Positions 5,444 to 63,073 of a DNA stretch of 64,000 bases are shown here, one piece after another; position 1 is the stretch's first letter; each line of letters begins with the position of its first letter. The notes under the pieces were generated by a model that saw only the letters and a list, made by a program, of their open reading frames with translations, did no database searches and was not told the DNA's origin. Origin of the DNA: Marsupella aquatica (Eukaryota; Plantae; Marchantiophyta); contig OZ316891.1 of assembly GCA_973895155.1 (NCBI GenBank), positions 16,354,248 through 16,418,247 on the forward strand, written 5' to 3'. Made by a program: the position numbers and the translations under genes.

Positions 5444-5866
5444 CGGTGCAAGGGCGCCGTTCCTTTTAGGAAGGGCGGACGTGGAGGTAGGAGGTGTGAG
5501 TGGGCAGGGCGGGCGCTGATCTCCAAGTTTAGGATTAGGATCAGGACCAGGAGCGGCCCTGACACTTAGCTTAGTGGGATTGCGGTTCCACTGGTAGGAG
5601 CAACACTTGTGCTCCTGCCTTGCTGTACATAGGTAGTTTCGGGCAGGTAGGTTACTGTTAGGTAGATTAGGCTTACGCTGCAAAGAATTAGGCGGATCCA
5701 CGGGAGAAAGGACCGGAAGAGGAGAGGGGTAAGGAGCGCTTGCAGGAGATGGTGGCTCATTTGCAAGCACAAACTAGGCAGACGACTACGGGAGGCCAAC
5801 TACTATCAGCTGCTTAGGCAAGCACTTGGGGAGAGAGTAGATACCGACAATCGACCTAAGGAGGGT

Positions 5867-16994: not shown

Positions 16995-17135
16995 AAAATG
17001 TGGTGCGTCCCATGGTTCCCTAAACCCAAGAAACCCCCCAGCGCAAGCCGATTCCTGCAGGTTTCACGCTTGGCGAGGCCGTTTCCGCGGCTTAGCGGCA
17101 TGGGACGCTGCTAACCTCCTTCTACTACTACTATT

Positions 17136-27369: not shown

Positions 27370-27470
27370 TCAGAGGAGATAGTAGTGGCGACCTAGAGAG
27401 AACGAGAGAGCTGGGGTCGAAGCTGGCGCGCGGACTGATGGACTGGTGCACTACAAAGGGTTGGCTCCCC

Positions 27471-27477
27471 TTTTATA
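27471..27477 (-). promoter_or_regulatory. Candidate TATA box ~100 nt upstream of the family B LTR ORF
   Basis: GTATAAAAGGGG on minus; conserved in the 5' LTR copy (35885-35892) at a similar spacing to the ATG at 35784. Confidence 0.5.
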
Positions 27478-28727
27478 CTTTGAGGGCTTGTCGATCCCCG
27501 ACGTCTCCTCGACGCCCATAGGTTGAACCGCTCACGCTTGTGGTGTACCGGCCACTCCGCCGGTCTGAGTCAGCGTGCGTCAGTGGCCGCTTCCTTAAGT
27601 TCGTTATACGGACCCGAGGGAGGGGCCCCTCCACGCTCGTAACCCGGGTGTGCGAATAGCGACCCGCCGCCAGCCCGAACCTGAAGTCCCCCTTATTGCC
27701 TAATGATGTCCTACCCCTAATGATTACCTAAATACTGTCGTTATGCTAATAATAGCGGCCTAAGACCCACCTAACGCGCGTGCCGAGCGCAGTTAGACTG
27801 AATCACTCATTAACCGCCGTACCGGCGGCGTCACACCAGGTGTCATCCCTGGTTGGAATGGCATTGATGGGATCGTCCTCCTCCTCTTTGGCTTCTCTCT
27901 GCCTCCTGCTCTGCTGCTCGTCTGGCTTCTTGGGTGCCGCCGACCTCGTTCTTTTTGTCGGGGTGGCTTCATCGTTGACGGCTCCCTTCCTCTTCATTTC
28001 GGCTCCCGTGGATGTCTCTCCTAGCACGGTTGCCTTTGTCCACCCCTCCGTGCTACCCTTCAACTCCCAGTGTATGTTGTTGCAGCGTTTGATGGCTTCT
28101 CGGATGCCGACGACTCTATCTTCGCAAAACAGAAGATCGTCGAGCTGATTGGAAGTAGGAGTCCACAAGAACTCGGCCTTGATGAGTTCGCCTCCTAAGA
28201 AAGTTGTCTTCTGCAGCTCCCACAATCAAGCAAGCTCCTGCCGTTCTCGAGCTGCCCTTTCTGATTCTTCGTCCTCGTAAGTCTTGATGTACTCAGTTGC
28301 CCGTTCGAACAGGCATCCCCAGAAATGTGCCGCTTGATTGACGTTGCTCATACCCTCCTTGAGTCGATCGTTGGTATCTGTTCCCACCCTGAGTGCTTGT
28401 CTAAGCAGCTGACAGCATTTGGCCTCCCGTAGTCGTCTGCCCAGTTCGTTCTTGCAAATGAGCCACTATTCCTCGCGAGCGGTCCTTACCCCTCTCCTCT
28501 TCCGGTCCTTCCTTCTGTTGATCCTTCCTAGCCGCCGACGCTTAGCGTGCCCTAACCCTAATCTTGTTTTCAACCCCAGCGTCCTTACTTCCGGCCTCGG
28601 CCCGGGTTCCATAGTCGCCCCTAATTGTTTATATTTTCCTTGTTTTGTCCCTATACTAAGGTGTTTCTAGGGTGCACTTCTGCTTTACCCACTTAACTGG
28701 CCGAGTGATTCTTGGCTAGGCATCACA

Positions 28728-32243: not shown

Positions 32244-35200
32244 TGTCACGTCATCAGCCTTGGCCTTAACTCGGGCTTCAGCTTTAAACGGGCACCTCCT
32301 TCGTAAATATGAGGGTTCGGGCAGGGAGGGAAGCGCATAATGCACCTAATTCAAGTAAACTAGCGCTAAGTGCGCCTACTGTTAGATACGGACATCTCCT
32401 AGGTATGGTTTATGTTCCGCCACCGGAACGTACCTTAGTCAATAACAGGATCGACCCCAGCTTAAGGACTTCTAAGCCTTCGTGTTATCCGCCTTCGATC
32501 CAGATTCAATGATACAGGTCCTCAACCCATGTTCGCAACCACATACCCGCAAGCTGCACCCCGTGCACGACTCGGGTAGTGCGTTCGGCCCGGCGTTGCC
32601 ACCTATACATGAGATTCACACACACATACACGCGTACAAGCATACAAGCATACAATCTCGATTTACATGAAGGAAATAATGGGAAAGGATTTTACTACAT
32701 AGGGGACATGTGCGTACACTTGGTTGACCCGACAGCTCCGGAATGAACAGATTCAAGGCCGAGAGAGTATACTACAACGGAGCCCGGCTCCGTACTTGCC
32801 CGGCGAGCTTAGTCCTACCCCCTCCCCTTGGTACTCTTTCACTCCCAGAGGTCGGGACTCCCCACGCATACCACGGATGTTCAATTCTGAGACTAAAACC
32901 CCCCCCCCCTTGCCTCTACTGAGGGGTGCACTAAATACTAAGGGTCGGGGAACGGAGTGTCCTCCCGACCAAAGATTTGCTGACTTAGGTCCTAACTATA
33001 ATCTGACTGTCAGGCCGAAAAATGGCTGTGTCTTATTAGAAGATCCTAATCTACGTAGGCTGGACAGCATGGCAGTGCTGTTGTAACTAAGGCAGGTGCC
33101 TGTCCCAATAGCCTGACTTAGCTACTCCTAACCCTATTCTATTCCTACTCCGCCGCTAATGCCTGGTACGCTTGCCAAAGCCGCAAGAGTGGGAGCGGCC
33201 ATCCCGCTGCTTACGAAGTCTGTCGTTGTCTGCCTTGAGGAGCTGGACCTGGTCTTGCAAAGATTTGTTCTCTCGCTTTGCCGCGTCTGTCTCCTCCGCT
33301 GCCTCCTGGCATGCCTCCTCCAGCTGCTGGGCGTCGCTCGTCAGCTTGCCCGCCAGCTGGTCCTGCTTCTCGGCTTCGGTTTGGAGCCGTGCCACTTCGG
33401 CCTGTAGCGTGGCTATCTCTGTAGTGTCCCGTTGGGCCCGTTCTTTGGCCTCCTCCAGGTTCTTCTGCCAGATGACAGTTTGATTCTTCAAACTGTCAAT
33501 CTGGTTCCGGAGTCGTGCAATCTCGGCCTCGTTCCCAGCTTTGGCCTGCTCGGCTAGGGCGGTAAGGGCGTGCGCCTTTGCTAACAAATCATCGACGGCT
33601 GCAACTTTGGGTCGTAGTTGCAGAAGCTCAGCCTCTTGAGCCACCCGGTACCGCTCTATCCTCTAAAGAGGCCTCTGACTGGGCCCGACCTACCTTTACT
33701 GCGGCAACTAACTCCTGATTGAAGAAACAGGCTACCTTCCGGGCCATGAACTCCCCGGTATCCCGGGAAATTTGATGAGAGAAATCTCCCAGAAGCCCGT
33801 TCAGAAATGTACCCGGTACGAAGAGTTCCGGGTGGTCCAGGTTCTGCCTGTTCGGAGTTGGGCACGGGCAGACGTCAACACGCGCGGGGGCTGGGGCAGT
33901 GACATCCAGCCCTGGGGACGTAATGTTGGAAGGGGCTGGAGTGTCCTCCTGCAGCAATGTCCGGTTCTTCGGGGTAACCACCGGTGGGTCTTTGGGAGAC
34001 CCGGGCTCGAGTAAGACCTCCGCTGTACCAACTTCTGTACTTAGCCCGGCCTGTTGGATTGCATCAACGGTTGCGATAACTGACCCATCCGGTACCTCCT
34101 TGGTTACGACTACAGCTACTTGTGGAGGTGGGGTGGGTGAAGCTTGCGTGTCCACTGGACTTCAGGCCTCGGGTTGGGGCCGTCTCTCCAAGGCTAGAAA
34201 AACCCACCTAGTTGGGACCAGCTTTGTAACGTTGACACGGGGAAGGGTTCGTCGATCAAACCGAGCGTACCACTCAAGAATGATCTCGATGTGGCTAGCA
34301 AAATACGCCTTCCCGCCAATGTACAGCGTCTTCCTTTGCCGCTCCATCTCTTCATGGAATTTCTTAGCGAAGTACGACGCCCACTTCCTAGGTCGATAGT
34401 TCTCGACCTGGATAACCTGGGCGATGGAGATCTCCCCCCAGGGTTCCATCATGTGGAGGGCGTACCTTTGGAACTCCAGTCGCTCAGCTATCTCGGGGAT
34501 GAGGCAGGTCCTCATCACGAACCCGTTGTCCACTGCTCCTTCTGAGGGAAAACTCGAGGATCGGTACTTGGCTCCCTTGCCCCCGGGAGCCCGTGATTCG
34601 ACTCGATGGTCACCTTCGGGTAATCCGAAGATCATCTTGAGTCGTTCTTCCGTGAGGGACATATTCCTTCCCCGCAGCCGAGTATGCTGACGTGCGTCAT
34701 CATAATTCTTGACGAATTCTGTCATGTCCTCCCTGTAGTACCTGCAAGTGTTCCAGGGCAGAGCGGCAAGGTGCTCGAATCCCTGAGTCTTTAGGTACAC
34801 CGCATGCTTGGGATGGAGGATGTTCTTATGCACGTTTTCCCCCATGCGGTGCATTGTCACCTTGGCCACGGCTACCGTGGCCAATGGTAACCCGGATGCA
34901 GTGGCGGGTTCCTTCCTCTTCTTCCCCTGTGACTGGCTCGGGGAAGGTGACACCTCCCCATCCTCTCGATCGGGCATAGGTAGTGCTACCACCGTTAGTA
35001 TTGGTCCCGGGGCGGCCACGGTCACCGTGTTGTCTGCTGGAGCCGCTCCTTGGGTCCGAGCATGGGGAGGGGACGATGTAGTATCGGCCCCCTGGGTGTT
35101 TGCTCCTCTGGGCCGCCTGAGCAAGGGTGGGGTAGCCTCGTCGTCGTCGCTAAGGTCCACAGCGTTGATGACGGAGCGTACTTGTACTGCTGGCGGGGCG

Positions 35201-36238
35201 ATCGGCGGTGGGGGTTGGCTAGGCTGAGGCTGAGACTGAAGCTGAGCCTGAGCCTGAGCTTGAGCCTGAGCCTGCATTGGTACGGGTACGGGTATGGGGT
35301 CCACTGGGCTGGCGCCGGTGTTTGCGGGTCTAGTTCCCATGAAGCTCTGCAGGTGCTGGTAGAAGTTCTCCGAAGCAAGTGCGGACGACCTTGTTGAACG
35401 GGTAGTGCTGGACTCACTGTTGATGATAGCCCAAACCTGAGCAGGGATGTGGTCGAAGTGATGTCATTGCAAGTCGTTCGTACCTGGGATATTGAAGACC
35501 TCATCCGAAAGCCAAAGCAATGCTTCCCAGAAACCGATATATTTGTCTCCATTGAAGAAGTACCCAGATACCTCTGCTGGTTGGTAAAGCTCGCTCTGAG
35601 ACGGGTAGTCAAAGTTAAGGATGTAGTGGTGTCGTCCTGCTAGGCGGATGGCTCTCTCGTACTCGCGTTCGATTTTGTATCGGCGTGGGTTGGCGTGTTT
35701 CAATGAGTCGGCCAAGTGCCTTCCGGTAGATAGGAACTGCGTCCAGAATTGAATGGCCAAACTGGAGAGGATCGTGTGCGACATTTAGAGGAGATAGTAG
35801 TGGCAACTTAGAGCAAACAAGAGAGCTGGGGTCGAAGCTGGCGCGTGGACTGATGGACTGGTGCACTCCAAAGGGTCGGCTCCCTTTTTATACCTTGAGG
35901 GCTTGCCGATCCCCCAACATTTCCTCGTTGCCTATAGGCTGAACCGTTCACGCTTGTAGTGTACCGGCCACTCCACCGGTTTGAGTCACCGCGTGTCAGT
36001 GGACACCTCTCGAAGTTCGTTATACGGACCCGAGGGAGGGGCCCCTCCACGCTCGTAACCCGGGCGTGCGAATGGCGACGCGCCGCCAGCCCAAACATGA
36101 ATTCCCCTTATTGACTAATGATTTCCTACTCATAATGGCTACCTAAATACTATCGTTATGCTAATCATAGCGGCCTAAGATACTCCTAATGCGTGTGCTA
36201 GGCACGGTTTAGACCGAATTACTCATTACTCGCCGTAC
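32244..36238 (-). repeat. Family B 5' LTR (~4.0 kb; outermost ~13 bp missing)
   Basis: Collinear with the solo LTR 23837-27835; similarity stops at CGCCGTAC (36238), and the CGGCGGCGTCACA terminus is absent. Confidence 0.88.
33156..35784 (-). pseudogene. Family B LTR-encoded ORF, 5' LTR copy (disrupted)
   Basis: ATG at 35784 (MSHTILSS); segments 35464-35784, 34162-35340, 33628-34155 and 33156-33644 are homologous to 24733-27369. Confidence 0.82.
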
Positions 36239-48155: not shown

Positions 48156-48249
48156 CAGGCCGTGGGGGGAGAGTAGGCCGTGGAGGGACCCCAGACCGTG
48201 GGGGGACACCAGGCCGTGGAGGGACACCAGGCCATGAAGGGACACCTAG
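48156..48249 (+). repeat. 18-bp tandem repeat (~5 units, consensus CAGGCCGTGGAGGGACAC) at the family C insertion site
   Basis: Read directly from the sequence. Confidence 0.75.
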
Positions 48250-48749
48250 TGTGACGGGTACCCCGTCACGGGAAGTCACACATAACTGGTTGCAAAGGCC
48301 GATACCTTGTTAATAGTCAATGTAAATAAGCCATTTTTTAATTTTTAGTTAATTCCGTCATTATAGGTTGATGATGCCCCAGGTGACTTTATATTCTTTC
48401 TCTCATAATAGTTCTAAGATTTGCGGCGACCTAAGTGGGCAAATATTTTGGGACCTTGAAACTAGCCAGGACCAGCCCCATAGGACTTACCGTTTTGCTT
48501 CAAGAGCTATTGTTGAGACCCCCATTGCAAAGTCAGGAGAGGGGGGGGTTTTTTTTAAAATAAATCCCTCCTCAGGAGGGCGAGTCCCATTAGTGGCCGT
48601 CCGAGAGAAAGAGGGGCTGCCTCGCGAGCCCATAGGGCTGCGTGCCCGGGCGATTAATGGGGCTCCGCGAGCTGAAGGGGCTGCCTCGCGAGCCCATAGG
48701 GCTGCGTGCCCGGGCAATTAATGAGGCTCCGCGAGCTGAAGGAGCGCAA

Positions 48750-48985
48750 GCGAGCGGGGGGGGGGGGGAGTTAAAGGGCCTCCCGCGAGCTGGGAGGATC
48801 ACGCGAGCGGGGGGGAGTTAAAGGGCCTCCCGCGAGCTGGGAGGATCACGCGAGCGGGGGGGAGTTAAAGGGCCTCCCGCGAGCTGGGAGGATCACGCGA
48901 GCGGGGGGGAGTTAAAGGGCCTCCCGCGAGCTGGGAGGATCACGCGAGCGGGGGGGAGTTGAAGGGCCTCCCGCGAGCCGGGAGG
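48750..48985 (+). repeat. 47-bp G-rich tandem repeat in the family C LTR, preceded by a ~65-bp duplication at ~48612-48742
   Basis: Unit GCGAGCGGGGGGGAGTTAAAGGGCCTCCCGCGAGCTGGGAGGATCAC; one unit fewer in the 3' LTR (~59496-59680). Confidence 0.9.
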
Positions 48986-49409
48986 AATGGCCGCGCGCCC
49001 TGCATAGGGCCGCGCGCAGGAGGACGCAAGGGTAAGGCCCGAGAAATGGGCCGGGGCGCATGGCGAAGGCGCCAGGAGTTTTTTCGGTTCTATTTTTTTT
49101 TCCTTCCTTTTTCTTTCCCTCTTCCTTTTGCACGACCCTCTCATTGCCGAAAGCAAAAACGGGGTTCTTCTCTCTCTTGCCGGAAGCTCTCTCCAGATTC
49201 TAATTATTTTTGAAGCTCTCTCTTTCATGGTGGATTAGTGGGGCTTGCTGGCGTCATTCTTCCAGGCATTAGTGGCGGCCGCACGGAGTAGTGACGGGAA
49301 ATTGAGAGAATTTAAGTGATCGGGCTACGGGGGCTGTTTCGGGCCAGGGAATTGACATTGCCACGGGTGACGGGATTGGTGATTGAGAAATTGATTTCGG
49401 GATGCATGG

Positions 49410-51266
49410 ATGCTAGATCAACCAGAGTTTAGTGCGTCACGCATTCGGAGATACAAGGCTGCTTACCGTGACTACGTGGAGACTCGGATTACACGGGAAA
49501 GGGAAGAGAGAGAAGTTATGATGAGCACGGGATTGGCAGCGGGTTCCTCACCGGTGGGTAGGAAGATTTTTCGTCGAATTTATCCCAAGACCTCCACCAA
49601 GGTGATGGAGGATTGTCGGAACATTTTCCAAGCCACCGGGCTTACAGAATTCATGAAGGTGGAGATTACCATCCCTTCAGGGAAGAGCTGGGACATTGAG
49701 GCCGGGATGGAGTTCCGAACGGAGGGAATCTACTTTGAATGTCTCAAACGTGTAGTGCCCCATGTGGAGTTGGCTAAGCTATTGTTTCTTGAGAATCAGA
49801 AATTCTCATTCACACCTCGGAATATCAGGGGAGAACTCACGTTGAAAATGGTGGCCACTTGGGTGACCAATCCTACCTCCACCACCGCCATCCCTCTTTC
49901 TGCTGTCAAGGATGTTGAGTATAAGGGCTTCCTGGCCAAGGTGCATCAACGGGTTCTTGGCAACGTGCAATCCGGAGTGCTGAATGAGGAGCATTTCGTG
50001 GTAGCTATGGACATCAAGAACTACCCAGCCCATGTGTACGGATGGTGGTGCTACGGATTGAAGAAGCTATTGGCCGCTGAGCCCGGGAGTGTGAAACCAG
50101 GTGGGGCTGTACATTTGATGGGGTCATTTGTATTGGCCAGGGCAGAAGGGTTGATTGGTTCTCCGGGGCATGAAGACACGGGATCATCTCTCACCACGGA
50201 GATCCGGAGTATTGCCACTACCGTTTTAGGGAAGCTCACGGAGGAATCATTGTCTGCTGGTGGGGAGGATAATAGAGAAGAAGAGAACCAGGAGGATGAT
50301 TGCACATTGGAGTGGCTTGAATCACTCGTGGGAGATCCGAAACAGCCTCTGGAATACAACATTCCGGATGTTTACTTGGCAGAGCTACGGGATTTCAGAG
50401 AGGGAGTCCACGAGGGACTCAAGCTAGTCCACGCATTGAGGGAGTCTCTCAAGCACGCCACAGTCAAAGTAGAGACGTTAGAGCAGAGCATCCTGTCACT
50501 GAAGGAGGTGATCAAGACCAAGGAGCAGACCATTCATGAGAAGGTCAGGCACATCAATGCAGCTCACGTAGAGATCACCAACTTGAAGGGAGCTTTGTCC
50601 ACCAAGGCCAAGGAAGCAGAAGAAGTAGGAGCGTTGAGGCAAGCATTGGCCAAAGAGAAGCAAAATTCTGGAGAAGTGATGGAGTGGAGGAACCAGGTGG
50701 GAGCACTACGGAGTCAGGTGGCAGCCTTTGAGACACGAGCGAAGAGAAGTGAGGCCCTGAGTCTAGGGAAACGGAAGAGTCCCGGCACACCTGGCTCCAC
50801 ACTTTCCCCGGATGTGATCTCCCAAGCTATCGAGATGGTGGTGAAGGAGGTTAGTGGGAAGTATGGACCCTTGTTGGATGGAGCCAAGAAGAGTCAGGAG
50901 AAGAGTAAGAGCTTGGAGAAGAAGCTCCGGGAGGTACGGAAATCGTTACGGGAGGCTCAGGTCAGTACGGGGATGCCACCCAGGTCTGTCACCCCCGGGA
51001 CTCCCATGGCCACGGGGCAAGTTCTACCGTTGGAGTTGCGGTCCGGAGAAGAGGCTACCCTCTGGAAGGACACAATTGGTGAGGGGTACATCAAGGCGTG
51101 GCAGGCCTTGGCTGCTTTGAGGAAGCGCGGGAGCAGCAGCACTAAGAGTACTCCGTCGAAGAAGAAGAAAAGTACGGTGGCACTCACTCCCGTGAGTGAT
51201 GAGGAGGAGGACCACTCACGGGGCACAAGTCCGGGCACCGAGAGCGAAGAAGAAGAGGAGGATTAG
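49410..51266 (+). CDS. Family C LTR-encoded protein (618 aa): N-terminal globular domain, acidic linker, coiled coil, basic/acidic tail; function unknown
   Basis: Intact ATG-to-TAG ORF entirely inside the 5' LTR; heptad-rich region VETLEQSILSLKEVIK..LRSQVAAFE; NLS-like PSKKKKS. Confidence 0.85.
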   Translation: MLDQPEFSASRIRRYKAAYRDYVETRITREREEREVMMSTGLAAGSSPVGRKIFRRIYPKTSTKVMEDCRNIFQATGLTEFMKVEITIPSGKSWDIEAGMEFRTEGIYFECLKRVVPHVELAKLLFLENQKFSFTPRNIRGELTLKMVATWVTNPTSTTAIPLSAVKDVEYKGFLAKVHQRVLGNVQSGVLNEEHFVVAMDIKNYPAHVYGWWCYGLKKLLAAEPGSVKPGGAVHLMGSFVLARAEGLIGSPGHEDTGSSLTTEIRSIATTVLGKLTEESLSAGGEDNREEENQEDDCTLEWLESLVGDPKQPLEYNIPDVYLAELRDFREGVHEGLKLVHALRESLKHATVKVETLEQSILSLKEVIKTKEQTIHEKVRHINAAHVEITNLKGALSTKAKEAEEVGALRQALAKEKQNSGEVMEWRNQVGALRSQVAAFETRAKRSEALSLGKRKSPGTPGSTLSPDVISQAIEMVVKEVSGKYGPLLDGAKKSQEKSKSLEKKLREVRKSLREAQVSTGMPPRSVTPGTPMATGQVLPLELRSGEEATLWKDTIGEGYIKAWQALAALRKRGSSSTKSTPSKKKKSTVALTPVSDEEEDHSRGTSPGTESEEEEED

Positions 51267-52397
51267 ATAGGCGTACGGACGTGGGTGTACGGCCTCCAGA
51301 TTTCCAACATTTTAGTGGGGGGTCACTCATGGGCTTGTTGGGATGAGCTCGCGGAGCTGATTCCAACAAGAGGCGGCGCTCCTCAAACGGAGCCAGGATG
51401 AGCAAGTTATGGCCTGGAGAACTTATGTTTTTGCGGTACGGAAACGGCCATAACTCAGGCGTCTGAAGTCCGTTGAGGGAGCGACTTAGTGATTCGGAAG
51501 CAGGAAAAGAAGAGCTATCCAGGGGTGAGCTCAGGTGTGCACTTGGAAGGGCACCTAGTTTCGGCCATTTTGGGGTGCCTCTCACTTTCAGGGTTCACGT
51601 GTACTGTTGGGGCGCCGTCGAAGGCACCGTCGGCCCCCTTGTTTTGGGTTTAGGGTTTTAGCAGCATGTGTGTGCCGCATGCTCCTCTTCAGTTTAAGGA
51701 TTTCTCTTAGTGCAAGGTTTTAGCGGCGCCGCTAGGGTAGCCGCCACCGTTGTGACCCTGTGAGGGGTGCTTTGGTGTGATTTTTCAGTATTTAGGGGGA
51801 TAGCCCCGAAGTAGTTAGGGGGACTCAGTGTGAAGTTAGCAAGGAGGGATAGAGTGGAGCCTGAGGAGTTTGAAAGCGTGTTCAGAGTAGTGAGGGGGAG
51901 CCATACTCATTGTCCGGAGAGGCAGGAGTTGAGTAGACGGCAGGAGGCCGGGTTACTCATGCAATGTGTATCGTTTTTCCCAAGAGATATGGATCTGTAC
52001 ATTTGACTTGATGGGCTTTTGTTGTGTGTTCCTTCTCCCTTTTTCGCTTTCCGAATTGTGTTCTCCCGTTCTATGATTTGAAGAAACTTGCTTGGTTTGA
52101 GTCGGCCTTGTGAGTAGGGGTGGTGACAGCACTCTTTGGGTGACTCCGAGTGAAGGTGTAGTGGGGTAGTCGGCAGGACTTGATCAAAAGCTGTGGGGTG
52201 AGGGTAGTCGGTAGACTTGATCAAAACCTACATTTCCGGGAGCGGAAACCAAAATACTCATCCTGGTGTGAAAAGAATCCAAATAGCGTCCCTCCACGAC
52301 CCCGTAATACGATACCAACGGTTTAAGCGAAGAAAAGTGCGGTTTGCACGTATTAACCGTTGGAGAGGCAAGTGACATAAGTGTGGTCTTTTGTTTT

Positions 52398-52415
52398 TGG
52401 CGCCGCTGCCGGGGA
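52398..52415 (+). promoter_or_regulatory. Primer binding site (tRNA-Asp type, as in Athila)
   Basis: TGGCGCCGCTGCCGGGGA, 20 nt after the LTR end; one base different from the recalled Athila PBS TGGCGCCGTTGCCGGGGA. Confidence 0.8.
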
Positions 52416-52632
52416 ATCCTTCTTCTTGTTTGACGACACGAAGGAGGGGAGCTACGTCTATTGGGAGTTCAAACCTATCAACCACAACGCAACTTGCGAC
52501 GGTTGATACGTGAGAAGTTTGTTGGTTACTTTGTTATTGTACGTCAACCACAACGCATCGTGCGACGGTTGATGTTTACAAATATTGCTTTCTGAGACAT
52601 TGGTGTAAGTTTGGAATGCAGGTCTCAATGGG

Positions 52633-55600
52633 ATGCCGAGAGGGAGAAGGGGAGGTAGAGGAAGTCCCCAACACACACGTACCCCAAGATCAGAGCTAGA
52701 AGGGGGGCCCTCTTGGATTGGGACCAGACGACGAGTTGCTGCCGAAGAACGCTTACGGCTTGCAGAAGAGAGGAGGTTGCCACTGGTGCTGGAAGAACAA
52801 GTTGGTGTGCAACAGGAAGAGGCTCAACGTAATGAGGCCATATGCCCAGACGAAGAGCCAGACATAGATCACGAGCGAGAAGAAGGAGAGCCCTTTGTGT
52901 TGGTGCAGTCTGAGTTACAAAATCTGATCCCAGAGCTCACTGCATTGCCACAAATCATCTCACACCTATCATCGGTGCTGTTACCGGTGGCCCAACAAGC
53001 GCCATTACCACCTGTGTTGATACAGGCACCGGCTGCACCGATGGCAGCTGCACAACGTACCCGTGTTCAGTACGTACCCTTCAAGGGGAGACCAAAGGAT
53101 GATCCAGACGAATGGATTGAGGAGTTTGAAGGGATTGCCGAAGCTAATGGGGAGTCTGCACATAAGCTCACTATCATTCCTGGAATGATGAGAGGGGAGG
53201 CAGGTCCATGGTTCATTTCGTTGTTGGCCAACGTGAAAGCTGATTGGGCTCTGTTCAAGCAAGCCTTCTTGAAGGAGTTCAGATCCATAGGAGTGGAGGC
53301 CACCTCACTATTAAAGGTGGGCCAACTCAGGATGAAGAAGAAGGAGTCATTACGGAGGTTTTTGCAAAGGTTCCAAAAGCTGGTACGTCGGATCCAAGCC
53401 CGTACCGATGATGCTATGCGTCAAGCCTGGTTTGTGGCTGCCCTACCAAGCAAGATGGGGTTCTTTGTACGTCAAGCCAAGCCAACCACATTGGCTGAAG
53501 CTATTGCAGCAGCGGAGTCATACACCGCAGCTGATGCCACAAGCAAGCGTTGCCGAAGAAAGAAGCTGAAGCCGGTTGACAGTTCCTCCAGTGAGGAGTC
53601 GAGTGGATCTGATTCAGATAGTAGTGATGAATCTGAGGATTCTGAGAGTACTACAGAGTCAGACACTACGGAGTCAGAAGCTGAAAGACGAAGGAGGAAG
53701 AAGAAGAAGTTGTCAAAGAAAGTCAAGAAGTCCTCTCACCGTGAAGTGATACTACCCACGGTGGCCGTTACACCATTGTCTACGGCAAGACGCCTGAAGG
53801 AGCAAGAGGCCAGATATGATGAGCTGACGGAGCAAATGAAAGCGTTGAAAGTACATTTTGCCGGACTCAAACCTGAGAGGAGAAAAGTTCCGGTGGAGAG
53901 AGCCAATGTGTGGTGCACCAAGTGCATGAAGTTTGGTCATGCCCCGAAGGAGTGCCCAGCGGGAGAACCAGCCAAGGTTTTCCAAGTACGGGAGGAGGAT
54001 GTTGAGGGGGCAAGCTACTCAAATCCTTCATATGCAGCGGAAGGGCCAATAGAGTACTTCATGGAGGAGCCACCAGAGGCCAACGTGTATAGTGTACAAC
54101 CTCTCAACCCGGGACCACGGAGCATTCATGGAGTTTCAACAAACGCCGGAGCACCCGCATACTCCAACTATCCCAATGCTAACCCAGGGAATCGACCACC
54201 GTACCCTGGAGTGAGGAAGATCCCTATTTGTTACAATTGTAGAGTGGCGGGCCACTACGCTAATGTGTGCCCAGAGCCCACCCGTCAAGGCAATGGAGAT
54301 TTTGCCCGGCTGTGTCAACTATGCAAGGGGGAGGGTCATCTTGCACCACACTGCCCAACCTTGGAGGCGTTCAAGGCTCAACCGATTGGGGCACAAGAGA
54401 AGAAGGGGCCGCCACCTCCTCTGAAAGAAGCTAGCGTCAACTTTCTCACCACGGAAGCAGTCGACACCCCTCTAATCACTAGAAGAGAAGAAACCGTAGT
54501 GAACATTCCCAAGCAAAGGATGACCACCATAACGGAGGAGGTGGTACCGCTAGTCGTTGTAGTATCTCCAGTTGTTGAGATACCGGTGGTTGTTGTTGCA
54601 ACATCTACGGAAGTTGAAGTTGCTAACCCCTCACCCCCAAGTCATGAGTGGACTCATGCTGAGAATCTACCGGAGGAAGACAGCGACGAGGAGAGAAGGC
54701 ATTACTCTTGTTACCGAGTCTCCACTCGATCCGGCAAAAAGAAGGGCAAGTCCGAGCTCAAGCAGAAGTACAAGGAGGTGCATCAAGCTTCCACATCGGG
54801 TACCTCACACGAACCGGAGGTGCCACCCATGGAGGATAGTGACTTTGATCGGGACAACCCCAAGTTGTTCTATCCGAAGGTGGGAGAAGAGGTACGTAAG
54901 CAGTTGGAGGAGCTAGAAGCACAAGCCATGCAAGCGGCCATTGACAAAGACATGGAGGAGGCAAAGGCCAGAAAGAAAGCGGAGGAGAGGGTTGTTCGTT
55001 GGAAACCGGGAGAAGAGGTCATCCCACCCATACCTCCTGCAACCGCGTACAACATTGCTCAAGACATTCTGGATTGCCCAGTCAGTGCCACAATTGGTCA
55101 ACTATTACGGGATAGCTCCCTATACCGTCGCCAAGTCAAGGAGATTCTCATGAGGAGGAGACGTAGAAGAAGGTTACCCAAAGTTGGGGCTGACCCCATA
55201 CAAGTCAACTGGGTCACGGAGGATTTGGGTGCCCCAGAACTCACGGTGGACATCAATGGATGTGCAATACGGTTTGTACCGGTGGACGGGGGCTCGGGAG
55301 TCAACATCATGACTGAGGAGACGGCAAACCGGTTGGGGTATACAGAGTTAGAACCACCGGCACGTGCCATGAGGTTGGCTGATGGTGCACGGGTGGTGCC
55401 GTTGGGGTGTCTCACCAAGATTCCAACAATGATTGGGGGAAAATCTTTCCCCCTCAACTATTTGGTGATGCGACCCGTTCGGCCGTACAGTTTTCCCATT
55501 TTAATTGGCAGGCCATGGTTGTATGTGGCCAAGGTCACAAGTGATTGGGGCAAACGGCAGTTTCGGTTTGGTATCCCCACTATCACTATTCCATGGTCAG

Positions 55601-58600
55601 CGGAGTCACCTCACGGGGAGACTACGACTATGGAGGAGGAATATGATTCAGAGGTCACCTCAGATGAAGACGAGGATGAAGTATACATGGTGAAACTGAT
55701 TTCTCACCTCACGGAGGAAGATGTTTTTGGCCCCGGAGTTGCTACTCAAGAGCATGCAGTAGAGGAATCAGTTAGCCAAGTGCACGCTGTTCTAGAAGAG
55801 ATGGAAGACGAGCGAAGCAAAATTGTGGAGGCTGAACCTCTAGAGATTCATGATAGGGAGGCAGAGGATCACCCCGAGGAGGTGGAAATGCAAGCCCACA
55901 CGATCATGTTTGATGATGAGCAAAGAGAGCAGTTTTTGAATGACATCCTGGATGATGACTTTAGAGAGGAGCTATTGTCACATTACAAAGAATCTGACGT
56001 TGAAGAAATAATGGCCCATGTGACAAAGGATCCACCTCCATCCCGACCAGACCAGGAGGAGAGTGATGCACCGGTGTATGGAGGGATGAGGCTCGCACGG
56101 TTGGAAGAAACCTTTGATGAGGAGACACGCAACAAGTTGGACGTGATCAGGCCGGAGCAGTACACAAAGGTGGAAGTGGGTGAGGGCAAGACACTCAACA
56201 TTGGTAGTAAGTTGGATGCTACGGAGCAACGCACGATTCAGGAATTGTTGAAAGAGTACCAAGACGTATTTGCGTGGAGCCACCAAGATTTGAAAGGAGT
56301 GCCACCTGAGTTTGGTGAGCACAGCATTGACCTGATGTCAGGAGCACGACCTGTGAGGCAACGCCAATACCGCCTCAACCCCAAATACTCACTCATGGTG
56401 AAGGAGGAGATTGACCGTTTGTTGGATGCAGGATTCATTTATCCGGTCATGCATAGTGAGTGGGTGTCACCCATCGTAATCGTGCCCAAGAAAAAGGGGC
56501 CAGACGGGAAGGTGAAAATACGGGTGTGCCAAGATTTTCGAAAGTTGAATGATGCGACCAAGAAGGATCACTACCCGCTACCGTTCACGGATATCGTGTT
56601 GGACATGGTAGCAGGTTGGGAGATATACAGCTTCTTGGATGGCTACTCTGGGTACAACCAAATCTGGATACGGGAGGAGGACCAACTCAAGACGGCTTTC
56701 ACAACAGAGTGGGGGATTTTTGCATTCCGGAGAATGCCTTTTGGGTTGTGCAATGCCCCTGGCATGTTCCAACGGCTCATGATGAATATATTTCATGACT
56801 TTTTACGCAGGTTCTTGGAGATCTTTATTGATGACTTTGCTGTCTACGGCAAACGAGTCAAGCATCCGGAACACTTACGGTTGACTTTTCAGCGGTGCCG
56901 GGAGACTTGCCTGAAGCTGCATCCGGAGAAATGTTTCTTTGGAATTGAGGAGGGAATCCTATTGGGCCACAAAGTGTCTGCACGAGGGATTGAAGTTGAT
57001 CGTGAGAAGGTCGCCGTGTGGGTAGCAGTCTCATTTCCCAAGAATGTGAAGGAAGTGAGAGGGTTCTTGGGGTGTGTTGGCTACTACCGACGCTTCATCA
57101 AAGACTTTGCCAAGGTAGCCATGCCACTCACTTCCATGTTGAAAAAAGGAAGTGAGTTTGAACCTACTCCTTCCCGTCAGGCTGCTTTTGATGAATTGAA
57201 GAAACGATTGCTAGAGGCCCCCGTGCTCATTACGCCCAATTGGAATAAGGAATTCCATGTTTACGTAGACGTATCAGGATTTTGCATCGGTGCCGTTTTG
57301 AGTCAGTTAGATGATGATGGAAGAGACCATCCCATCTACTTTGCCAGTAGGCAGTTGGCCCCGGCAGAGAAAAACTACTCACCCACCGATAGGGAGGCAC
57401 TTGGTATCATCTACGCTTGTAAGAAGTATCGTCATTATTTGTTGGGGTACAAGGTTGTGTTCCACACGGATCACAACAGCTTGAAATACATGGTCAACAA
57501 GCCAGATCTGTCCGGGAGAATTGCACGTTGGGTTTTGTTGCTACAAGAGTTCAACTATGAGGTGAGAGTAAGATCGGGGAAGAGTCATAGCAATGCAGAC
57601 TTCTTCTCCCGTATTGAGGGAGCATCTGACTCCCAGGAGATTGATGATCGGTTCCCGGATGAGGAAGTGTTCAGCGTGAATACAGAGGCCACTACTTGGT
57701 ATGGAGAAATTTTGGAATTTCTCCGCACGGCTAGAGTTCCCTCACGTTTGGGCCCGGAGAGAGCAGCAGTGTTTTTGCGTAAGACAGGTCCCTACTTGCT
57801 TGTGAAGGGAGTACTTCACAAGTACGGCATGGATGGCCGACTTCGTCGTTGTTTGGAGGAAGCGGAGATACGTACAGTCATGGCAGCATTACATGAGGAG
57901 GAAGCTGGTGGCCACTTTGCACGGGAGACCACCGCAAGGAAAATACTAGATGCTGGATATTGGTGGCCAACTCTCTTTCGGGATGTACACCGGTACATCC
58001 AGCGATGTGATCCGTGCCAGCGTCAAGGCAAACCAGGGCCCTCCTCACGACACCCATTGGTGCCCATACTTCCTCTTGCACCCTTTGAGAAGTGGGGGGT
58101 GGACTTCATTGGCCCTTTCACTCCCATCACACGAAGAGGGAGGAAGCGCTACATCATTCTTGCAACGGACTATGCCACCAAGTGGGTGGAGGCCCGAGCT
58201 ACTGCCAAGGATGATGCCAACACCACGGCACGTTTTTTGTATGAGCAGATTTTTACACGATTTGGTCCACCATTGGAGTTGGTAAGTGACAGGGGTACTC
58301 ACTTCCTCAATCATACGATTGAACGTTTGACGGAGAACTACTTGATCTCACATAGGAAGACCACTCCGTACCACCCTCGAGCCAACGGGCTCACTGAGAG
58401 AGCCAACGGGATCATGGGCAAGATCCTCAACAAAACGGTATCCGCTCACAAGACCGATTGGGATTTGAAGTTGTTGGCTGCCACTTACGCTTACAACCTG
58501 GCTCACAAGACTACCACGGGCCACAGCCCCTATTTCCTTGTGTTTGGACAACACTCTCTTGTGCCGGTGGAATTTGAGGTTCCAACCATTCGAATCCTAA

Positions 58601-59031
58601 CACGGGAAAGGGAAGGGGCAGAAGAAAGTGTCGCTTCACGGATCCAACAGTTGGAGCAACTCACGGAGACACGAGAAGAGGCTTTGACACATACGGAGCA
58701 GGAGCAAGGCAAACGCAAGTCACATTACGATTCCCGTCTCCGTCGTGTGTCCATTGAGGAGGGAGATTTGGTGCTCCTCTACGATAGCCGCTTCATGCAT
58801 TTCCCCGGGAAGTTGCATACACGGTGGATGGGACCCTACGTAGTGGATGCCGTCTACTCCAACGGCTCGGTTCAACTCAAGACATTGGAGGGGCAACTAC
58901 TCAACACACGGATCAATCAAGAGCGCCTAAAGAAGTACTACACGGAGGAAGAGTATGGTGCTCGCGGGGGCGCTTCGCAATTAAGAGAGGAGCTATGTGA
59001 CGGGTACCCCGTCACGGGAAGTCACACATAA
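52633..59031 (+). CDS. gag-pol: Gag-Pol polyprotein (2132 aa): capsid, 3x CCHC, protease, RT, RNase H, integrase with GPY; no chromodomain
   Basis: FKGRPKDDPDEWIEEFE; three CX2CX4HX4C; VDGGSGVNIM; FLDGYSGYNQI, FIDDF; VYVDVSG..E..TDH..NAD; HEEEAGGHF..CDPC, WGVDFIGP, SDRGTHF, NGLTERAN, WMGPY. Confidence 0.97.
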   Translation: MPRGRRGGRGSPQHTRTPRSELEGGPSWIGTRRRVAAEERLRLAEERRLPLVLEEQVGVQQEEAQRNEAICPDEEPDIDHEREEGEPFVLVQSELQNLIPELTALPQIISHLSSVLLPVAQQAPLPPVLIQAPAAPMAAAQRTRVQYVPFKGRPKDDPDEWIEEFEGIAEANGESAHKLTIIPGMMRGEAGPWFISLLANVKADWALFKQAFLKEFRSIGVEATSLLKVGQLRMKKKESLRRFLQRFQKLVRRIQARTDDAMRQAWFVAALPSKMGFFVRQAKPTTLAEAIAAAESYTAADATSKRCRRKKLKPVDSSSSEESSGSDSDSSDESEDSESTTESDTTESEAERRRRKKKKLSKKVKKSSHREVILPTVAVTPLSTARRLKEQEARYDELTEQMKALKVHFAGLKPERRKVPVERANVWCTKCMKFGHAPKECPAGEPAKVFQVREEDVEGASYSNPSYAAEGPIEYFMEEPPEANVYSVQPLNPGPRSIHGVSTNAGAPAYSNYPNANPGNRPPYPGVRKIPICYNCRVAGHYANVCPEPTRQGNGDFARLCQLCKGEGHLAPHCPTLEAFKAQPIGAQEKKGPPPPLKEASVNFLTTEAVDTPLITRREETVVNIPKQRMTTITEEVVPLVVVVSPVVEIPVVVVATSTEVEVANPSPPSHEWTHAENLPEEDSDEERRHYSCYRVSTRSGKKKGKSELKQKYKEVHQASTSGTSHEPEVPPMEDSDFDRDNPKLFYPKVGEEVRKQLEELEAQAMQAAIDKDMEEAKARKKAEERVVRWKPGEEVIPPIPPATAYNIAQDILDCPVSATIGQLLRDSSLYRRQVKEILMRRRRRRRLPKVGADPIQVNWVTEDLGAPELTVDINGCAIRFVPVDGGSGVNIMTEETANRLGYTELEPPARAMRLADGARVVPLGCLTKIPTMIGGKSFPLNYLVMRPVRPYSFPILIGRPWLYVAKVTSDWGKRQFRFGIPTITIPWSAESPHGETTTMEEEYDSEVTSDEDEDEVYMVKLISHLTEEDVFGPGVATQEHAVEESVSQVHAVLEEMEDERSKIVEAEPLEIHDREAEDHPEEVEMQAHTIMFDDEQREQFLNDILDDDFREELLSHYKESDVEEIMAHVTKDPPPSRPDQEESDAPVYGGMRLARLEETFDEETRNKLDVIRPEQYTKVEVGEGKTLNIGSKLDATEQRTIQELLKEYQDVFAWSHQDLKGVPPEFGEHSIDLMSGARPVRQRQYRLNPKYSLMVKEEIDRLLDAGFIYPVMHSEWVSPIVIVPKKKGPDGKVKIRVCQDFRKLNDATKKDHYPLPFTDIVLDMVAGWEIYSFLDGYSGYNQIWIREEDQLKTAFTTEWGIFAFRRMPFGLCNAPGMFQRLMMNIFHDFLRRFLEIFIDDFAVYGKRVKHPEHLRLTFQRCRETCLKLHPEKCFFGIEEGILLGHKVSARGIEVDREKVAVWVAVSFPKNVKEVRGFLGCVGYYRRFIKDFAKVAMPLTSMLKKGSEFEPTPSRQAAFDELKKRLLEAPVLITPNWNKEFHVYVDVSGFCIGAVLSQLDDDGRDHPIYFASRQLAPAEKNYSPTDREALGIIYACKKYRHYLLGYKVVFHTDHNSLKYMVNKPDLSGRIARWVLLLQEFNYEVRVRSGKSHSNADFFSRIEGASDSQEIDDRFPDEEVFSVNTEATTWYGEILEFLRTARVPSRLGPERAAVFLRKTGPYLLVKGVLHKYGMDGRLRRCLEEAEIRTVMAALHEEEAGGHFARETTARKILDAGYWWPTLFRDVHRYIQRCDPCQRQGKPGPSSRHPLVPILPLAPFEKWGVDFIGPFTPITRRGRKRYIILATDYATKWVEARATAKDDANTTARFLYEQIFTRFGPPLELVSDRGTHFLNHTIERLTENYLISHRKTTPYHPRANGLTERANGIMGKILNKTVSAHKTDWDLKLLAATYAYNLAHKTTTGHSPYFLVFGQHSLVPVEFEVPTIRILTREREGAEESVASRIQQLEQLTETREEALTHTEQEQGKRKSHYDSRLRRVSIEEGDLVLLYDSRFMHFPGKLHTRWMGPYVVDAVYSNGSVQLKTLEGQLLNTRINQERLKKYYTEEEYGARGGASQLREELCDGYPVTGSHT
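58983..58992 (+). promoter_or_regulatory. Polypurine tract, family C
   Basis: AAGAGAGGAG, 3 nt before the 3' LTR and within the pol reading frame. Confidence 0.7.
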
Positions 59032-62000
59032 CTGGTTGCAAAGGCCGATACCTTGTTAATAGTCAATGTAAATAAGCCATTTTTTAATTTTTAGTTAATT
59101 CCGTCATTATAGGTTGATGATGCCCCAGGTGACTTTATATTCTTTCTCTCATAATAGTTCTAAGATTTGCGGCGACCTAAGTGGGCAAATATTTTGGGAC
59201 CTTGAAACTAGCCAGGACCAGCCCCATAGGACTTACCGTTTTGCTTCAAGAGCTATTGTTGAGACCCCCATTGCAAAGTCAGGAGAGGGGGGGGTTTTTT
59301 TTAAAATAAATCCCTCCTCAGGAGGGCGAGTCCCATTAGTGGCCGTCCGAGAGAAAGAGGGGCTGCCTCGCGAGCCCATAGGGCTGCGTGCCCGGGCGAT
59401 TAATGGGGCTCCGCGAGCTGAAGGGGCTGCCTCGCGAGCCCATAGGGCTGCGTGCCCGGGCAATTAATGAGGCTCCGCGAGCTGAAGGAGCGCAAGCGAG
59501 CGGGGGGGGGGAGTTAAAGGGCCTCCCGCGAGCTGGGAGGATCACGCGAGCGGGGGGGAGTTAAAGGGCCTCCCGCGAGCTGGGAGGATCACGCGAGCGG
59601 GGGGGAGTTAAAGGGCCTCCCGCGAGCTGGGAGGATCACGCGAGCGGGGGGGAGTTGAAGGGCCTCCCGTGAGCCGGGAGGAATGGCCGCGCGCCCTGCA
59701 TAGGGCCGCGCGCAGGAGGACGCAAGGGTAAGGCCCGAGAAATGGGCCGGGGCGCATGGCGAAGGCGCCAGGAGTTTTTTCGGTTCTATTTTTTTTTCCT
59801 TCCTTTTTCTTTCCCTCTTCCTTTTGCACGACCCTCTCATTGCCGAAAGCAAAAACGGGGTTCTTCTCTCTCTTGCCGGAAGCTCTCTCCAGATTCTAAT
59901 TATTTTTGAAGCTCTCTCTTTCATGGTGGATTAGTGGGGCTTGCTGGCGTCATTCTTCCAGGCATTAGTGGCGGCCGCACGGAGTAGTGACGGGAAATTG
60001 AGAGAATTTAAGTGATCGGGCTACGGGGGCTGTTTCGGGCCAGGGAATTGACATTGCCACGGGTGACGGGATTGGTGATTGAGAAATTGATTTCGGGATG
60101 CATGGATGCTAGATCAACCAGAGTTTAGTGCGTCACGCATTCGGAGATACAAGGCTGCTTACCGTGACTACGTGGAGACTCGGATTACACGGGAAAGGGA
60201 AGAGAGAGAAGTTATGATGAGCACGGGATTGGCAGCGGGTTCCTCACCGGTGGGTAGGAAGATTTTTCATCGAATTTATCCCAAGACCTCCACCAAGGTG
60301 ATGGAGGATTGTCGGAACATTTTCCAAGCCACCGGGCTTACAGAATTCATGAAGGTGGAGATTACCATCCCTTCAGGGAAGAGCTGGGACATTGAGGCCG
60401 GGATGGAGTTCCGAACGGAGGGAATCTACTTTGAATGTCTCAAACGTGTAGTGCCCCATGTGGAGTTGGCTAAGCTATTGTTTCTTGAGAATCAGAAATT
60501 CTCATTCACACCTCGGAATATCAGGGGAGAACTCACGTTGAAAATGGTGGCCACTTGGGTGACCAATCCTACCTCCACCACCGCCATCCCTCTTTCTGCT
60601 GTCAAGGATGTTGAGTATAAGGGCTTCCTGGCCAAGGTGCATCAACGGGTTCTTGGCAACGTGCAATCCGGAGTGCTGAATGAGGAGCATTTCGTGGTAG
60701 CTATGGACATCAAGAACTACCCAGCCCATGTGTACGGATGGTGGTGCTACGGATTGAAGAAGCTATTGGCCGCTGAGCCCGGGAGTGTGAAACCAGGTGG
60801 GGCTGTACATTTGATGGGGTCATTTGTATTGGCCAGGGCAGAAGGGTTGATTGGTTCTCCGGGGCATGAAGACACGGGATCATCTCTCACCACGGAGATC
60901 CGGAGTATTGCCACTACCGTTTTAGGGAAGCTCACGGAGGAATCATTGTCTGCTGGTGGGGAGGATAATAGAGAAGAAGAGAACCAGGAGGATGATTGCA
61001 CATTGGAGTGGCTTGAATCACTCGTGGGAGATCCGAAACAGCCTCTGGAATACAACATTCCGGATGTTTACTTGGCAGAGCTACGGGATTTCAGAGAGGG
61101 AGTCCACGAGGGACTCAAGCTAGTCCACGCATTGAGGGAGTCTCTCAAGCACGCCACAGTCAAAGTAGAGACGTTAGAGCAGAGCATCCTGTCACTGAAG
61201 GAGGTGATCAAGACCAAGGAGCAGACCATTCATGAGAAGGTCAGGCACATCAATGCAGCTCACGTAGAGATCACCAACTTGAAGGGAGCTTTGTCCACCA
61301 AGGCCAAGGAAGCAGAAGAAGTAGGAGCGTTGAGGCAAGCATTGGCCAAAGAGAAGCAAAATTCTGGAGAAGTGATGGAGTGGAGGAACCAGGTGGGAGC
61401 ACTACGGAGTCAGGTGGCAGCCTTTGAGACACGAGCGAAGAGAAGTGAGGCCCTGAGTCTAGGGAAACGGAAGAGTCCCGGCACACCTGGCTCCACACTT
61501 TCCCCGGATGTGATCTCCCAAGCTATCGAGATGGTGGTGAAGGAGGTTAGTGGGAAGTATGGACCCTTGTTGGATGGAGCCAAGAAGAGTCAGGAGAAGA
61601 GTAAGAGCTTGGAGAAGAAGCTCCGGGAGGTACGGAAATCGTTACGGGAGGCTCAGGTCAGTACGGGGATGCCACCCAGGTCTGTCACCCCCGGGACTCC
61701 CATGGCCACGGGGCAAGTTCTACCGTTGGAGTTGCGGTCCGGAGAAGAGGCTACCCTCTGGAAGGACACAATTGGTGAGGGGTACATCAAGGCGTGGCAG
61801 GCCTTGGCTGCTTTGAGGAAGCGCGGGAGCAGCAGCACTAAGAGTACTCCGTCGAAGAAGAAGAAAAGTACGGTGGCACTCACTCCCGTGAGTGATGAGG
61901 AGGAGGACCACTCACGGGGCACAAGTCCGGGCACCGAGAGCGAAGAAGAAGAGGAGGATTAGATAGGCGTACGGACGTGGGTGTACGGCCTCCAGATTTC

Positions 62001-63073
62001 CAACATTTTAGTGGGGGGTCACTCATGGGCTTGTTGGGATGAGCTCGCGGAGCTGATTCCAACAAGAGGCGGCGCTCCTCAAACGGAGCCAGGATGAGCA
62101 AGTTATGGCCTGGAGAACTTATGTTTTTGCGGTACGGAAACGGCCATAACTCAGGCGTCTGAAGTCCGTTGAGGGAGCGACTTAGTGATTCGGAAGCAGG
62201 AAAAGAAGAGCTATCCAGGGGTGAGCTCAGGTGTGCACTTGGAAGGGCACCTAGTTTCGGCCATTTTGGGGTGCCTCTCACTTTCAGGGTTCACGTGTAC
62301 TGTTGGGGCGCCGTCGAAGGCACCGTCGGCCCCCTTGTTTTGGGTTTAGGGTTTTAGCAGCATGTGTGTGCCGCATGCTCCTCTTCAGTTTAAGGATTTC
62401 TCTTAGTGCAAGGTTTTAGCGGCGCCGCTAGGGTAGCCGCCACCGTTGTGACCCTGTGAGGGGTGCTTTGGTGTGATTTTTCAGTATTTAGGGGGATAGC
62501 CCCGAAGTAGTTAGGGGGACTCAGTGTGAAGTTAGCAAGGAGGGATAGAGTGGAGCCTGAGGAGTTTGAAAGCGTGTTCAGAGTAGTGAGGGGGAGCCAT
62601 ACTCATTGTCCGGAGAGGCAGGAGTTGAGTAGACGGCAGGAGGCCGGGTTACTCATGCAATGTGTATCGTTTTTCCCAAGAGATATGGATCTGTACATTT
62701 GACTTGATGGGCTTTTGTTGTGTGTTCCTTCTCCCTTTTTCGCTTTCCGAATTGTGTTCTCCCGTTCTATGATTTGAAGAAACTTGCTTGGTTTGAGTCG
62801 GCCTTGTGAGTAGGGGTGGTGACAGCACTCTTTGGGTGACTCCGAGTGAAGGTGTAGTGGGGTAGTCGGCAGGACTTGATCAAAAGCTGTGGGGTGAGGG
62901 TAGTCGGTAGACTTGATCAAAACCTACATTTCCGGGAGCGGAAACCAAAATACTCATCCTGGTGTGAAAAGAATCCAAATAGCGTCCCTCCACGACCCCG
63001 TAATACGATACCAACGGTTTAAGCGAAGAAAAGTGCGGTTTGCACGTATTAACCGTTGGAGAGGCAAGTGACA
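58996..63073 (+). repeat. Family C 3' LTR (4078 bp)
   Basis: Direct repeat of 48250-52377, followed by TSD CCTAG. Confidence 0.96.
60106..61962 (+). CDS. Family C LTR-encoded protein, 3' LTR copy (618 aa)
   Basis: Intact; the only amino-acid difference noticed versus the 5' copy is KIFRRIY/KIFHRIY. Confidence 0.85.
   Translation: MLDQPEFSASRIRRYKAAYRDYVETRITREREEREVMMSTGLAAGSSPVGRKIFHRIYPKTSTKVMEDCRNIFQATGLTEFMKVEITIPSGKSWDIEAGMEFRTEGIYFECLKRVVPHVELAKLLFLENQKFSFTPRNIRGELTLKMVATWVTNPTSTTAIPLSAVKDVEYKGFLAKVHQRVLGNVQSGVLNEEHFVVAMDIKNYPAHVYGWWCYGLKKLLAAEPGSVKPGGAVHLMGSFVLARAEGLIGSPGHEDTGSSLTTEIRSIATTVLGKLTEESLSAGGEDNREEENQEDDCTLEWLESLVGDPKQPLEYNIPDVYLAELRDFREGVHEGLKLVHALRESLKHATVKVETLEQSILSLKEVIKTKEQTIHEKVRHINAAHVEITNLKGALSTKAKEAEEVGALRQALAKEKQNSGEVMEWRNQVGALRSQVAAFETRAKRSEALSLGKRKSPGTPGSTLSPDVISQAIEMVVKEVSGKYGPLLDGAKKSQEKSKSLEKKLREVRKSLREAQVSTGMPPRSVTPGTPMATGQVLPLELRSGEEATLWKDTIGEGYIKAWQALAALRKRGSSSTKSTPSKKKKSTVALTPVSDEEEDHSRGTSPGTESEEEEED

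Follow-up and report, generated by a model that had tools for sequence, protein, structure and literature searches.

An intact retrotransposon with a gene in each long terminal repeat

We examined a 64,000-nucleotide stretch (the window) of the liverwort Marsupella aquatica, positions 16,354,248 to 16,418,247 of contig OZ316891.1 in assembly GCA_973895155.1. It holds an intact Ty3/gypsy retrotransposon, here called element C, and remains of two further families, A and B (Table 1). The long terminal repeats (LTRs) of C each carry, in sense orientation, a complete open reading frame (ORF) for a 618-amino-acid protein. A preliminary description of the window, made from the letters alone, had proposed that C belongs to a gypsy sublineage with protein-coding LTRs, and the anatomy it gave for the element is borne out at every point. 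The 5-bp target site duplication (TSD) CCTAG is present on both sides, both LTRs begin with TGTGAC and end with GTGACA, and the pair differs by two substitutions (48974 C/T; 49573 G/A) and one 50-bp indel. The indel amounts to one 47-bp repeat unit plus three G and lies within the 47-bp tandem array, while the change at 49573 replaces R by H at codon 55 of the LTR ORF. The single gag-pol frame encodes gag, three CCHC knuckles, protease (PR), reverse transcriptase (RT), RNase H (RH) as well as integrase (INT), with all catalytic motifs intact, and its 3' end extends 36 nucleotides into the 3' LTR. The PR-RT-RH-INT order, TG...CA LTRs, primer binding site (PBS), polypurine tract (PPT) and TSD are those of Ty3/gypsy elements, and C is a recent, intact, bryophyte-type non-chromovirus member of that group. 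With two changes over 4078 bp, and if substitution is assumed to run at 1.3e-8 to 2e-9 per site per year, the insertion dates to roughly 20,000-120,000 years ago. The preliminary description had called C likely to be still active; given the intact frames and two LTR substitutions, we would call this plausible.

Table 1. Positions in the window of element C, its parts and the LTRs of families A and B
Feature	Position	Strand	Remarks
Element C, left TSD CCTAG	48245..48249	+	right copy 63074-63078
Element C, 5' LTR, 4128 bp, TG...CA	48250..52377	+	begins TGTGAC, ends GTGACA
GC-rich tandem arrays, LTR upstream of ORF	48612..48986	+	64 bp x2; 47 bp x4.8 (3' LTR x3.8)
618-aa LTR ORF, 5' copy	49410..51266	+	open throughout
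Possible second-PPT relic in C LTR	51302..51325	+	60 nt after ORF stop
PBS, Athila tRNA-Asp type	52398..52415	+	20 nt beyond 5' LTR end
gag-pol, intact, one 2132-aa frame	52633..59031	+	gag, PR, RT, RH, INT
PPT AAGAGAGGAGCTA	58983..58995	+	in last codons of pol, abuts 3' LTR
Element C, 3' LTR, 4078 bp	58996..63073	+	begins TGTGAC, ends GTGACA
618-aa LTR ORF, 3' copy	60106..61962	+	single residue change, R55H
Family A solo LTR, unit ~4.6 kb with 3765-bp internal tandem duplication	1726..10118	+	TSD GGTTG
Family A 5' LTR with ORF	16999..28727	-	followed by PBS and gag; interrupted by B solo LTR and small LTR element
Family B solo LTR with ORF (26268-24733 still open), 3999 bp	23837..27835	-	TSD CCTGG
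Family B 5' LTR, first ~13 bp missing	32244..36238	-	broken ORF 35340-33156, then PBS; start approximate

The LTR ORF is not a chance opening: the longest stop-free frames in 1000 base shuffles of the C LTR had a mean length of 156 codons and a maximum of 285. Its product has a globular, net basic domain at about residues 46-250, an acidic linker, a coiled coil at about residues 320-520 and a tail that is first basic and then acidic. It has no transmembrane helix (the highest 19-residue Kyte-Doolittle mean is 1.09, and 0.63-1.44 in the A and B frames), which rules out an env-like membrane protein. A full HMMER scan of 1.84 billion representatives returned 13 relatives, and the seven that were looked up are four proteins of Calypogeia fissa and three Logan fragments; identity is 43-62% in public fragments and 27-32% in the four C. 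fissa proteins. A word-seeded protein search (7994 candidates) found no match, IMG/VR held no relative of the LTR ORF or of the RH-INT region, and the four loci from GTDB contigs were all uninformative for C.

C was inserted into an 18-bp tandem array (48155-48246). The C LTR has an observed/expected CpG ratio of 0.72, and A and B have ratios of 0.66-0.89, against 0.32-0.34 in the flanks of C (44500-48249 and 63074-64000). This is the pattern expected where insertions that are young, or carry less methylation, sit in an old, methylated region.

Families A and B also carry ORFs in their LTRs

In the left half of the window the insertions are nested: an A element lies inside the RT of a B element, while the A pol in turn holds a LINE (long interspersed nuclear element) and an A solo LTR. 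The 3' LTRs of A and B fall outside the window. The limits of their LTRs could be fixed independently of C, since the solo LTRs have 5-bp TSDs of their own and there is a PBS after each 5' LTR, probably of the tRNA-Asn type in both families. The LTRs of A and B gave no blastn match to the C LTR, yet each carries a long sense frame, so the same design recurs, as first proposed, without evident nucleotide similarity. Stops, a frameshift and nested insertions now interrupt the copies in the window, and the frame of about 1100 codons in the A solo LTR has stops in each copy.

The preliminary description had suggested a survey of the ratio of non-synonymous to synonymous substitution (dN/dS) in the LTR frames. 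Run on the A and B copies in the window, this gave 0.22-0.30 between copies of the B ORF (95% intervals 0.15-0.41), 0.20-0.33 between copies of the A ORF, and 0.10-0.15 for the globular domain in the more diverged pairs; in the young A tandem pair the intervals of two sub-regions include 1. Changes are commonest at third positions, and the reading frame survives nearly all indels. Purifying selection has thus acted on the A and B ORFs, which are selected genes. Within the A solo LTR, the two copies of the tandem duplication (1929-5701 and 5694-9460) are 96.7% identical, and each has a TAG stop of its own (3173, 6941); the two stops fall at neighbouring codons, for which the third copy has CAG CAG.

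That the three families are products of assembly error, or of a tandem duplication mimicking long LTRs, we regard as having almost no chance of being right. The two C LTRs do differ in length by one repeat unit, as an assembly slip might leave them; but three independent 5-bp TSDs (C, A solo, B solo) lie exactly at TG...CA ends, a PBS follows the 5' LTRs and the PPT abuts the 3' LTR, and on these grounds an artefact was rejected.

Placement among Ty3/gypsy lineages

Among the best 120 of 3082 matches to the C pol, the named proteins closest in identity belong to Riccia sorocarpa, at 58% across 85% of the query, and to Marchantia, at 47%, and angiosperm Athila-like proteins mostly reach 36-45% over long matches. 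A metagenome scan with an RH-INT alignment, from which we kept 80 of 527 loci, added five close loci (L001-L005) at 54-59%. A further locus, L083, is a 1510-codon gypsy gag-pol frame that terminates a 173-kb contig; the contig bears the label of an Acidobacteriaceae metagenome-assembled genome and is probably chimeric. In a quick RH-INT tree of 44 rows (29 of the 120 proteins and 13 of the 80 loci, chosen by us, plus C and A, with REXdb references not included), C, A and two database proteins (P0001, P0006) were joined at 100% in the Shimodaira-Hasegawa-like approximate likelihood ratio test. They lie inside a group, also at 100%, with the Riccia rows and L001-L004, apart from the angiosperm Athila-like rows.

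Two lineages were ruled out on structure: Phygy, a moss non-chromovirus with 4-bp NCGN TSDs and a tRNA-Trp PBS in REXdb, by the 5-bp TSDs and Asp-type PBS of C, and Tat (TatI-III, Ogre, Retand) by the lack of a match to the additional RNase H (aRH). With Athila C shares the 5-bp TSD, the Asp-type PBS (one of 18 bases different from the Asp PBS given for FIDEL in PMC2844528) and a gag-pol in which Pfam finds neither aRH nor chromodomain. What it does not have is an internal ORF, as pol enters the 3' LTR and the extra ORF lies inside the LTR; for this reason and because of its separate position in the tree, we do not file C as Athila proper, even though in its workings it resembles an Athila that has an extra ORF. 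The fully supported clade of C and A, the purifying selection on the A and B ORFs and the conservation of the C protein support a gypsy sublineage with protein-coding LTRs.

A putative route into the LTR

All five close metagenome loci have a long sense ORF after pol. In L001, a circular contig, the order is pol, a PPT-like motif without a following TG, the ORF, then a second PPT with TGTGA that begins a 993-bp LTR ending in CA; its PBS is the same as that of C. PPT-like motifs also flank the ORF of L005, a locus that branches off outside the C group. In L002-L004 a PPT and TG directly follow pol, and these may be LTR-ORF elements too, although their contigs end before the LTR could be delimited. 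From ORF stop to LTR end, 1111 bp remain in C, 916 bp in A and 896 bp in B.

These arrangements suggest an ancestor with the order pol-PPT-ORF-PPT and a 1-kb LTR. Were plus-strand priming to move to the first, upstream PPT, all sequence downstream of it would become U3, and the ORF, being in U3, would be copied by reverse transcription to both LTRs. The 4-kb LTR would then consist of the former internal 3' region plus the former 1-kb LTR, and recombination would leave the ORF behind in solo LTRs, where A and B indeed retain it. A promoter of its own, lying within the first 0.4-1.2 kb of the LTR, would drive the ORF, and genomic RNA would start in the last 1 kb or so. We consider this relocation by PPT switch, together with a separate ORF promoter, to be the likely course of events.

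A different layout, with the ORF in R/U5, strikes us as improbable. Here an upstream LTR promoter would start the genomic RNA, the ORF would be a 5' extra ORF of the Ogre ORF1 or Retrosat2 ORF0 type, and gag-pol would be expressed by splicing or from a second start. The region before the ORF does resemble a plant promoter and leader, with a pyrimidine tract at about 49085-49230 in C and TATA-like words in A and B, and no TATA was found in the post-ORF segment of C. Such a layout, however, calls for a minus-strand strong-stop DNA about 3 kb long. The relatives have their homologous ORFs 3' of pol, and the post-ORF segment is as long as an entire ordinary LTR.

Two features of the priming regions may be recorded here. 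A 43-nucleotide stretch containing the PPT is identical in L003 (6110-6155) and L004 (2353-2395), whose downstream regions otherwise do not align; this hints that an RNA or priming signal upstream of the PPT is conserved. A similar context, GCG-GGGCGCTTC, precedes the PPTs of C and L001. The PBS begins 20 nucleotides past the LTR end in C (52378-52397), 13 in B (LTR end 32244), 11 in L001 (7566-7575) and 3-4 in A and L003; the extra bases of C, B and L001 would have to be trimmed before integration.

Predicted function of the LTR protein

In the preliminary description the LTR ORFs were distinguished from the accessory ORFs of Athila and Tat, which are internal; for A and B this distinction probably does not hold. 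Their ORF appears to be a remote member of the same family, relocated into the LTR: hhalign joins both subsets to the L005 ORF at 94%, and L005 matches PF20167 at E 3e-5, below the Pfam cut-off. The link is transitive, running through L005, and the A and B ORFs have no direct PF03078 or PF20167 match at the Pfam cut-off. On this reading, it is the LTR position of the accessory gene that is new, while the protein family is known. For the C protein, Atlas returned the two families expected beforehand (scores 0.81 and 0.79), and kinship with Athila ORF1/Transposase_32 is a lead only.

Other searches returned little. Pfam gave sub-threshold coiled-coil matches alone for the C protein and its homologues, with no PF10536 match, and fold searches with the full C model gave weak or coiled-coil matches alone. 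A word-seeded search with the A/B alignment (7995 candidates) found no match, a PDB sequence search with an A/B/L profile was empty, and Foldseek with a model of B (from the amino acids encoded at 34800-34165) had no match at E 0.001 in PDB or BFVD. Only one solved structure gives a match, and a weak one, that spans the whole domain: VANC, an anti-silencing factor on DNA. VANC proteins keep VANDAL transposons expressed, and their targets build tandem repeats (PMC5735166). In the pre-ORF arrays of C the motif CGCGAGC occurs 13 times against a shuffle maximum of 6, making these arrays candidate promoter or target motifs. CG-containing repeats also precede the ORF in L002-L004, weaker than the C arrays; in C and L002-L004 they are at or above the shuffled maxima.

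The LTR protein, then, would enter the nucleus, bind family-specific repeated LTR motifs, oligomerise via its coiled coil and counter silencing by DNA methylation, so that the element stays expressed. This is the weakest step, and we put it forward tentatively, as somewhat less than an even prospect. On balance we lean, with modest confidence, towards a selected LTR gene that entered U3 by PPT switch and encodes a predicted nuclear DNA-binding regulator of the Athila-ORF1/PMD/VANC type (PMD, plant mobile domain). The fuller version, in which a VANC-like, sequence-specific anti-silencing gene moved to U3 with promoter and target array and made every LTR, solo ones too, a self-contained source of the protein with binding sites for it, is rather unlikely.

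Several results weigh against the reading we favour. The possible second-PPT relic in C is the best site in the LTR, yet does not exceed the shuffled maximum; its counterpart in A ranks second or third, B has none, and the weight-matrix scan for PPTs beat its shuffles in none of the five LTR copies. Motif arrays are absent from A, B and L001. Moreover, the C and A/B proteins show no significant similarity by BLASTP, hhalign or HMM (hidden Markov model), hhalign scoring at shuffle level with no match whether trimmed or not. Such a lack of similarity would be expected had C captured its ORF independently, with no kinship to the ORF family of A/B and Athila, and were the shared design convergent. 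We hold that to be very improbable, because the C and A/B ORFs agree in where they lie, in orientation and in architecture, the RH-INT tree places C close to A, and Atlas named the families expected beforehand.

A more serious competitor accepts the same U3 relocation but sees in the protein no anti-silencing factor; it would be a simple transactivator, a tether for integration or to chromatin, or a chaperone of RNA or particles. PMD/MAIN-type folds serve gene activation too (10.1101/2024.09.27.615353), about a third of the C protein is coiled coil, the VANC match is weak, and A and B have no motif arrays. Against this stand the identity of the sole solved structure matching the whole domain and the CG-containing repeated motifs in C and L002-L004. 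We judge it unlikely.

Other features of the window

The small LTR element within the A 5' LTR (17136-20100, minus strand) has identical 145-bp LTRs and the TSD AATAG; its 173-aa ORF has no Pfam match, and it is probably a young non-autonomous element. The LINEs at 12708-15172 and 38187-43727 (minus strand) both have RT and zf-RVT and are about 68% alike over RT; the former sits in the A gag-pol, and the latter additionally has an endonuclease and DUF4283. Decayed frames at 36300-38100 and 46600-47500 (plus strand), the left end of which adjoins the clipped start of the B 5' LTR, presumably derive from a CACTA/En-Spm transposase, which they resemble in their motifs.

Implications

Plant LTRs are treated as non-coding, a rule broken here in three families by selected genes of 600-1100 codons. 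Solo LTRs take on a new meaning, for the recombination that deletes the element leaves behind an accessory gene and its probable promoter. The PPT switch would offer a simple route for an LTR to grow from 1 to 4 kb, with L001 as the likely 'before' state. Annotation tools that limit LTR length, or that follow the REXdb rule of seeking the PBS only 0-5 bp past the LTR, could overlook such elements or assign them to the wrong type. With the structural lead to VANC21, the function of Athila-type 'env-like' ORFs becomes testable, and the intact, young C copy is good material. If the VANC-like reading is true, this long-puzzling ORF family would gain a function, VANC-type folds would occur on retrotransposons outside flowering plants, and solo LTRs would be trans-acting helpers, not dead remnants.

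Comparison with known systems

The closest parallels in position come from animal retroviruses, where sag of mouse mammary tumour virus and nef of human immunodeficiency virus are genes in U3 that encode smaller, unrelated proteins. There, as in C, a protein gene in the LTR is copied to both ends by reverse transcription; here, however, the host element is an env-less plant retrotransposon and the gene has 600-1100 codons.

For plants, a narrow phrase search of the literature found no LTR-encoded gene, and reviews put plant extra ORFs in the internal region (PMC7264820, PMC6317226). Retrosat2, RIRE3 and FRetro3 of grasses have LTRs longer than 3 kb and an extra ORF0 upstream of gag-pol (PMC3485330) which, unlike the C ORF, is not described there as part of the LTR. 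The long LTRs of Ogre are described as non-coding in PMC6431247, and PMD (PF10536) extra ORFs occur in 57% of Ogre elements according to PMC6317226. Like the host MAIN/MAIL1 proteins, these are reported to have a VANC fold, and they provide an example of an accessory domain borne by retrotransposons; Ogre, however, has aRH and internal ORFs, and the C and A/B ORFs do not match PF10536. VANC21 itself (VANDAL21 MuDR, PDB 9lnk) is encoded on dicot DNA transposons, whereas the gene here lies in a retrotransposon LTR and has no sequence match to it; the C arrays are candidate counterparts of the tandem target motifs of VANC.

Nearest overall is Athila, a group of OTA non-chromoviruses with a 3' sense extra ORF (PF03078/PF20167), as outlined in PMC6317226, PMC7264820 and PMC11728184. 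C shares with it the 5-bp TSD, the Asp-type PBS, a single gag-pol and the lack of aRH, as well as a sense extra ORF 3' of pol, and the A/B domain is linked to PF20167 through L005. C differs in grouping with liverwort and metagenome rows in the tree and in a PBS 20 nucleotides from the LTR end. The Athila ORF lies between pol and LTR (1.3 kb in L063), whereas here pol reaches up to or into the LTR, and both LTRs as well as solo LTRs contain the ORF.

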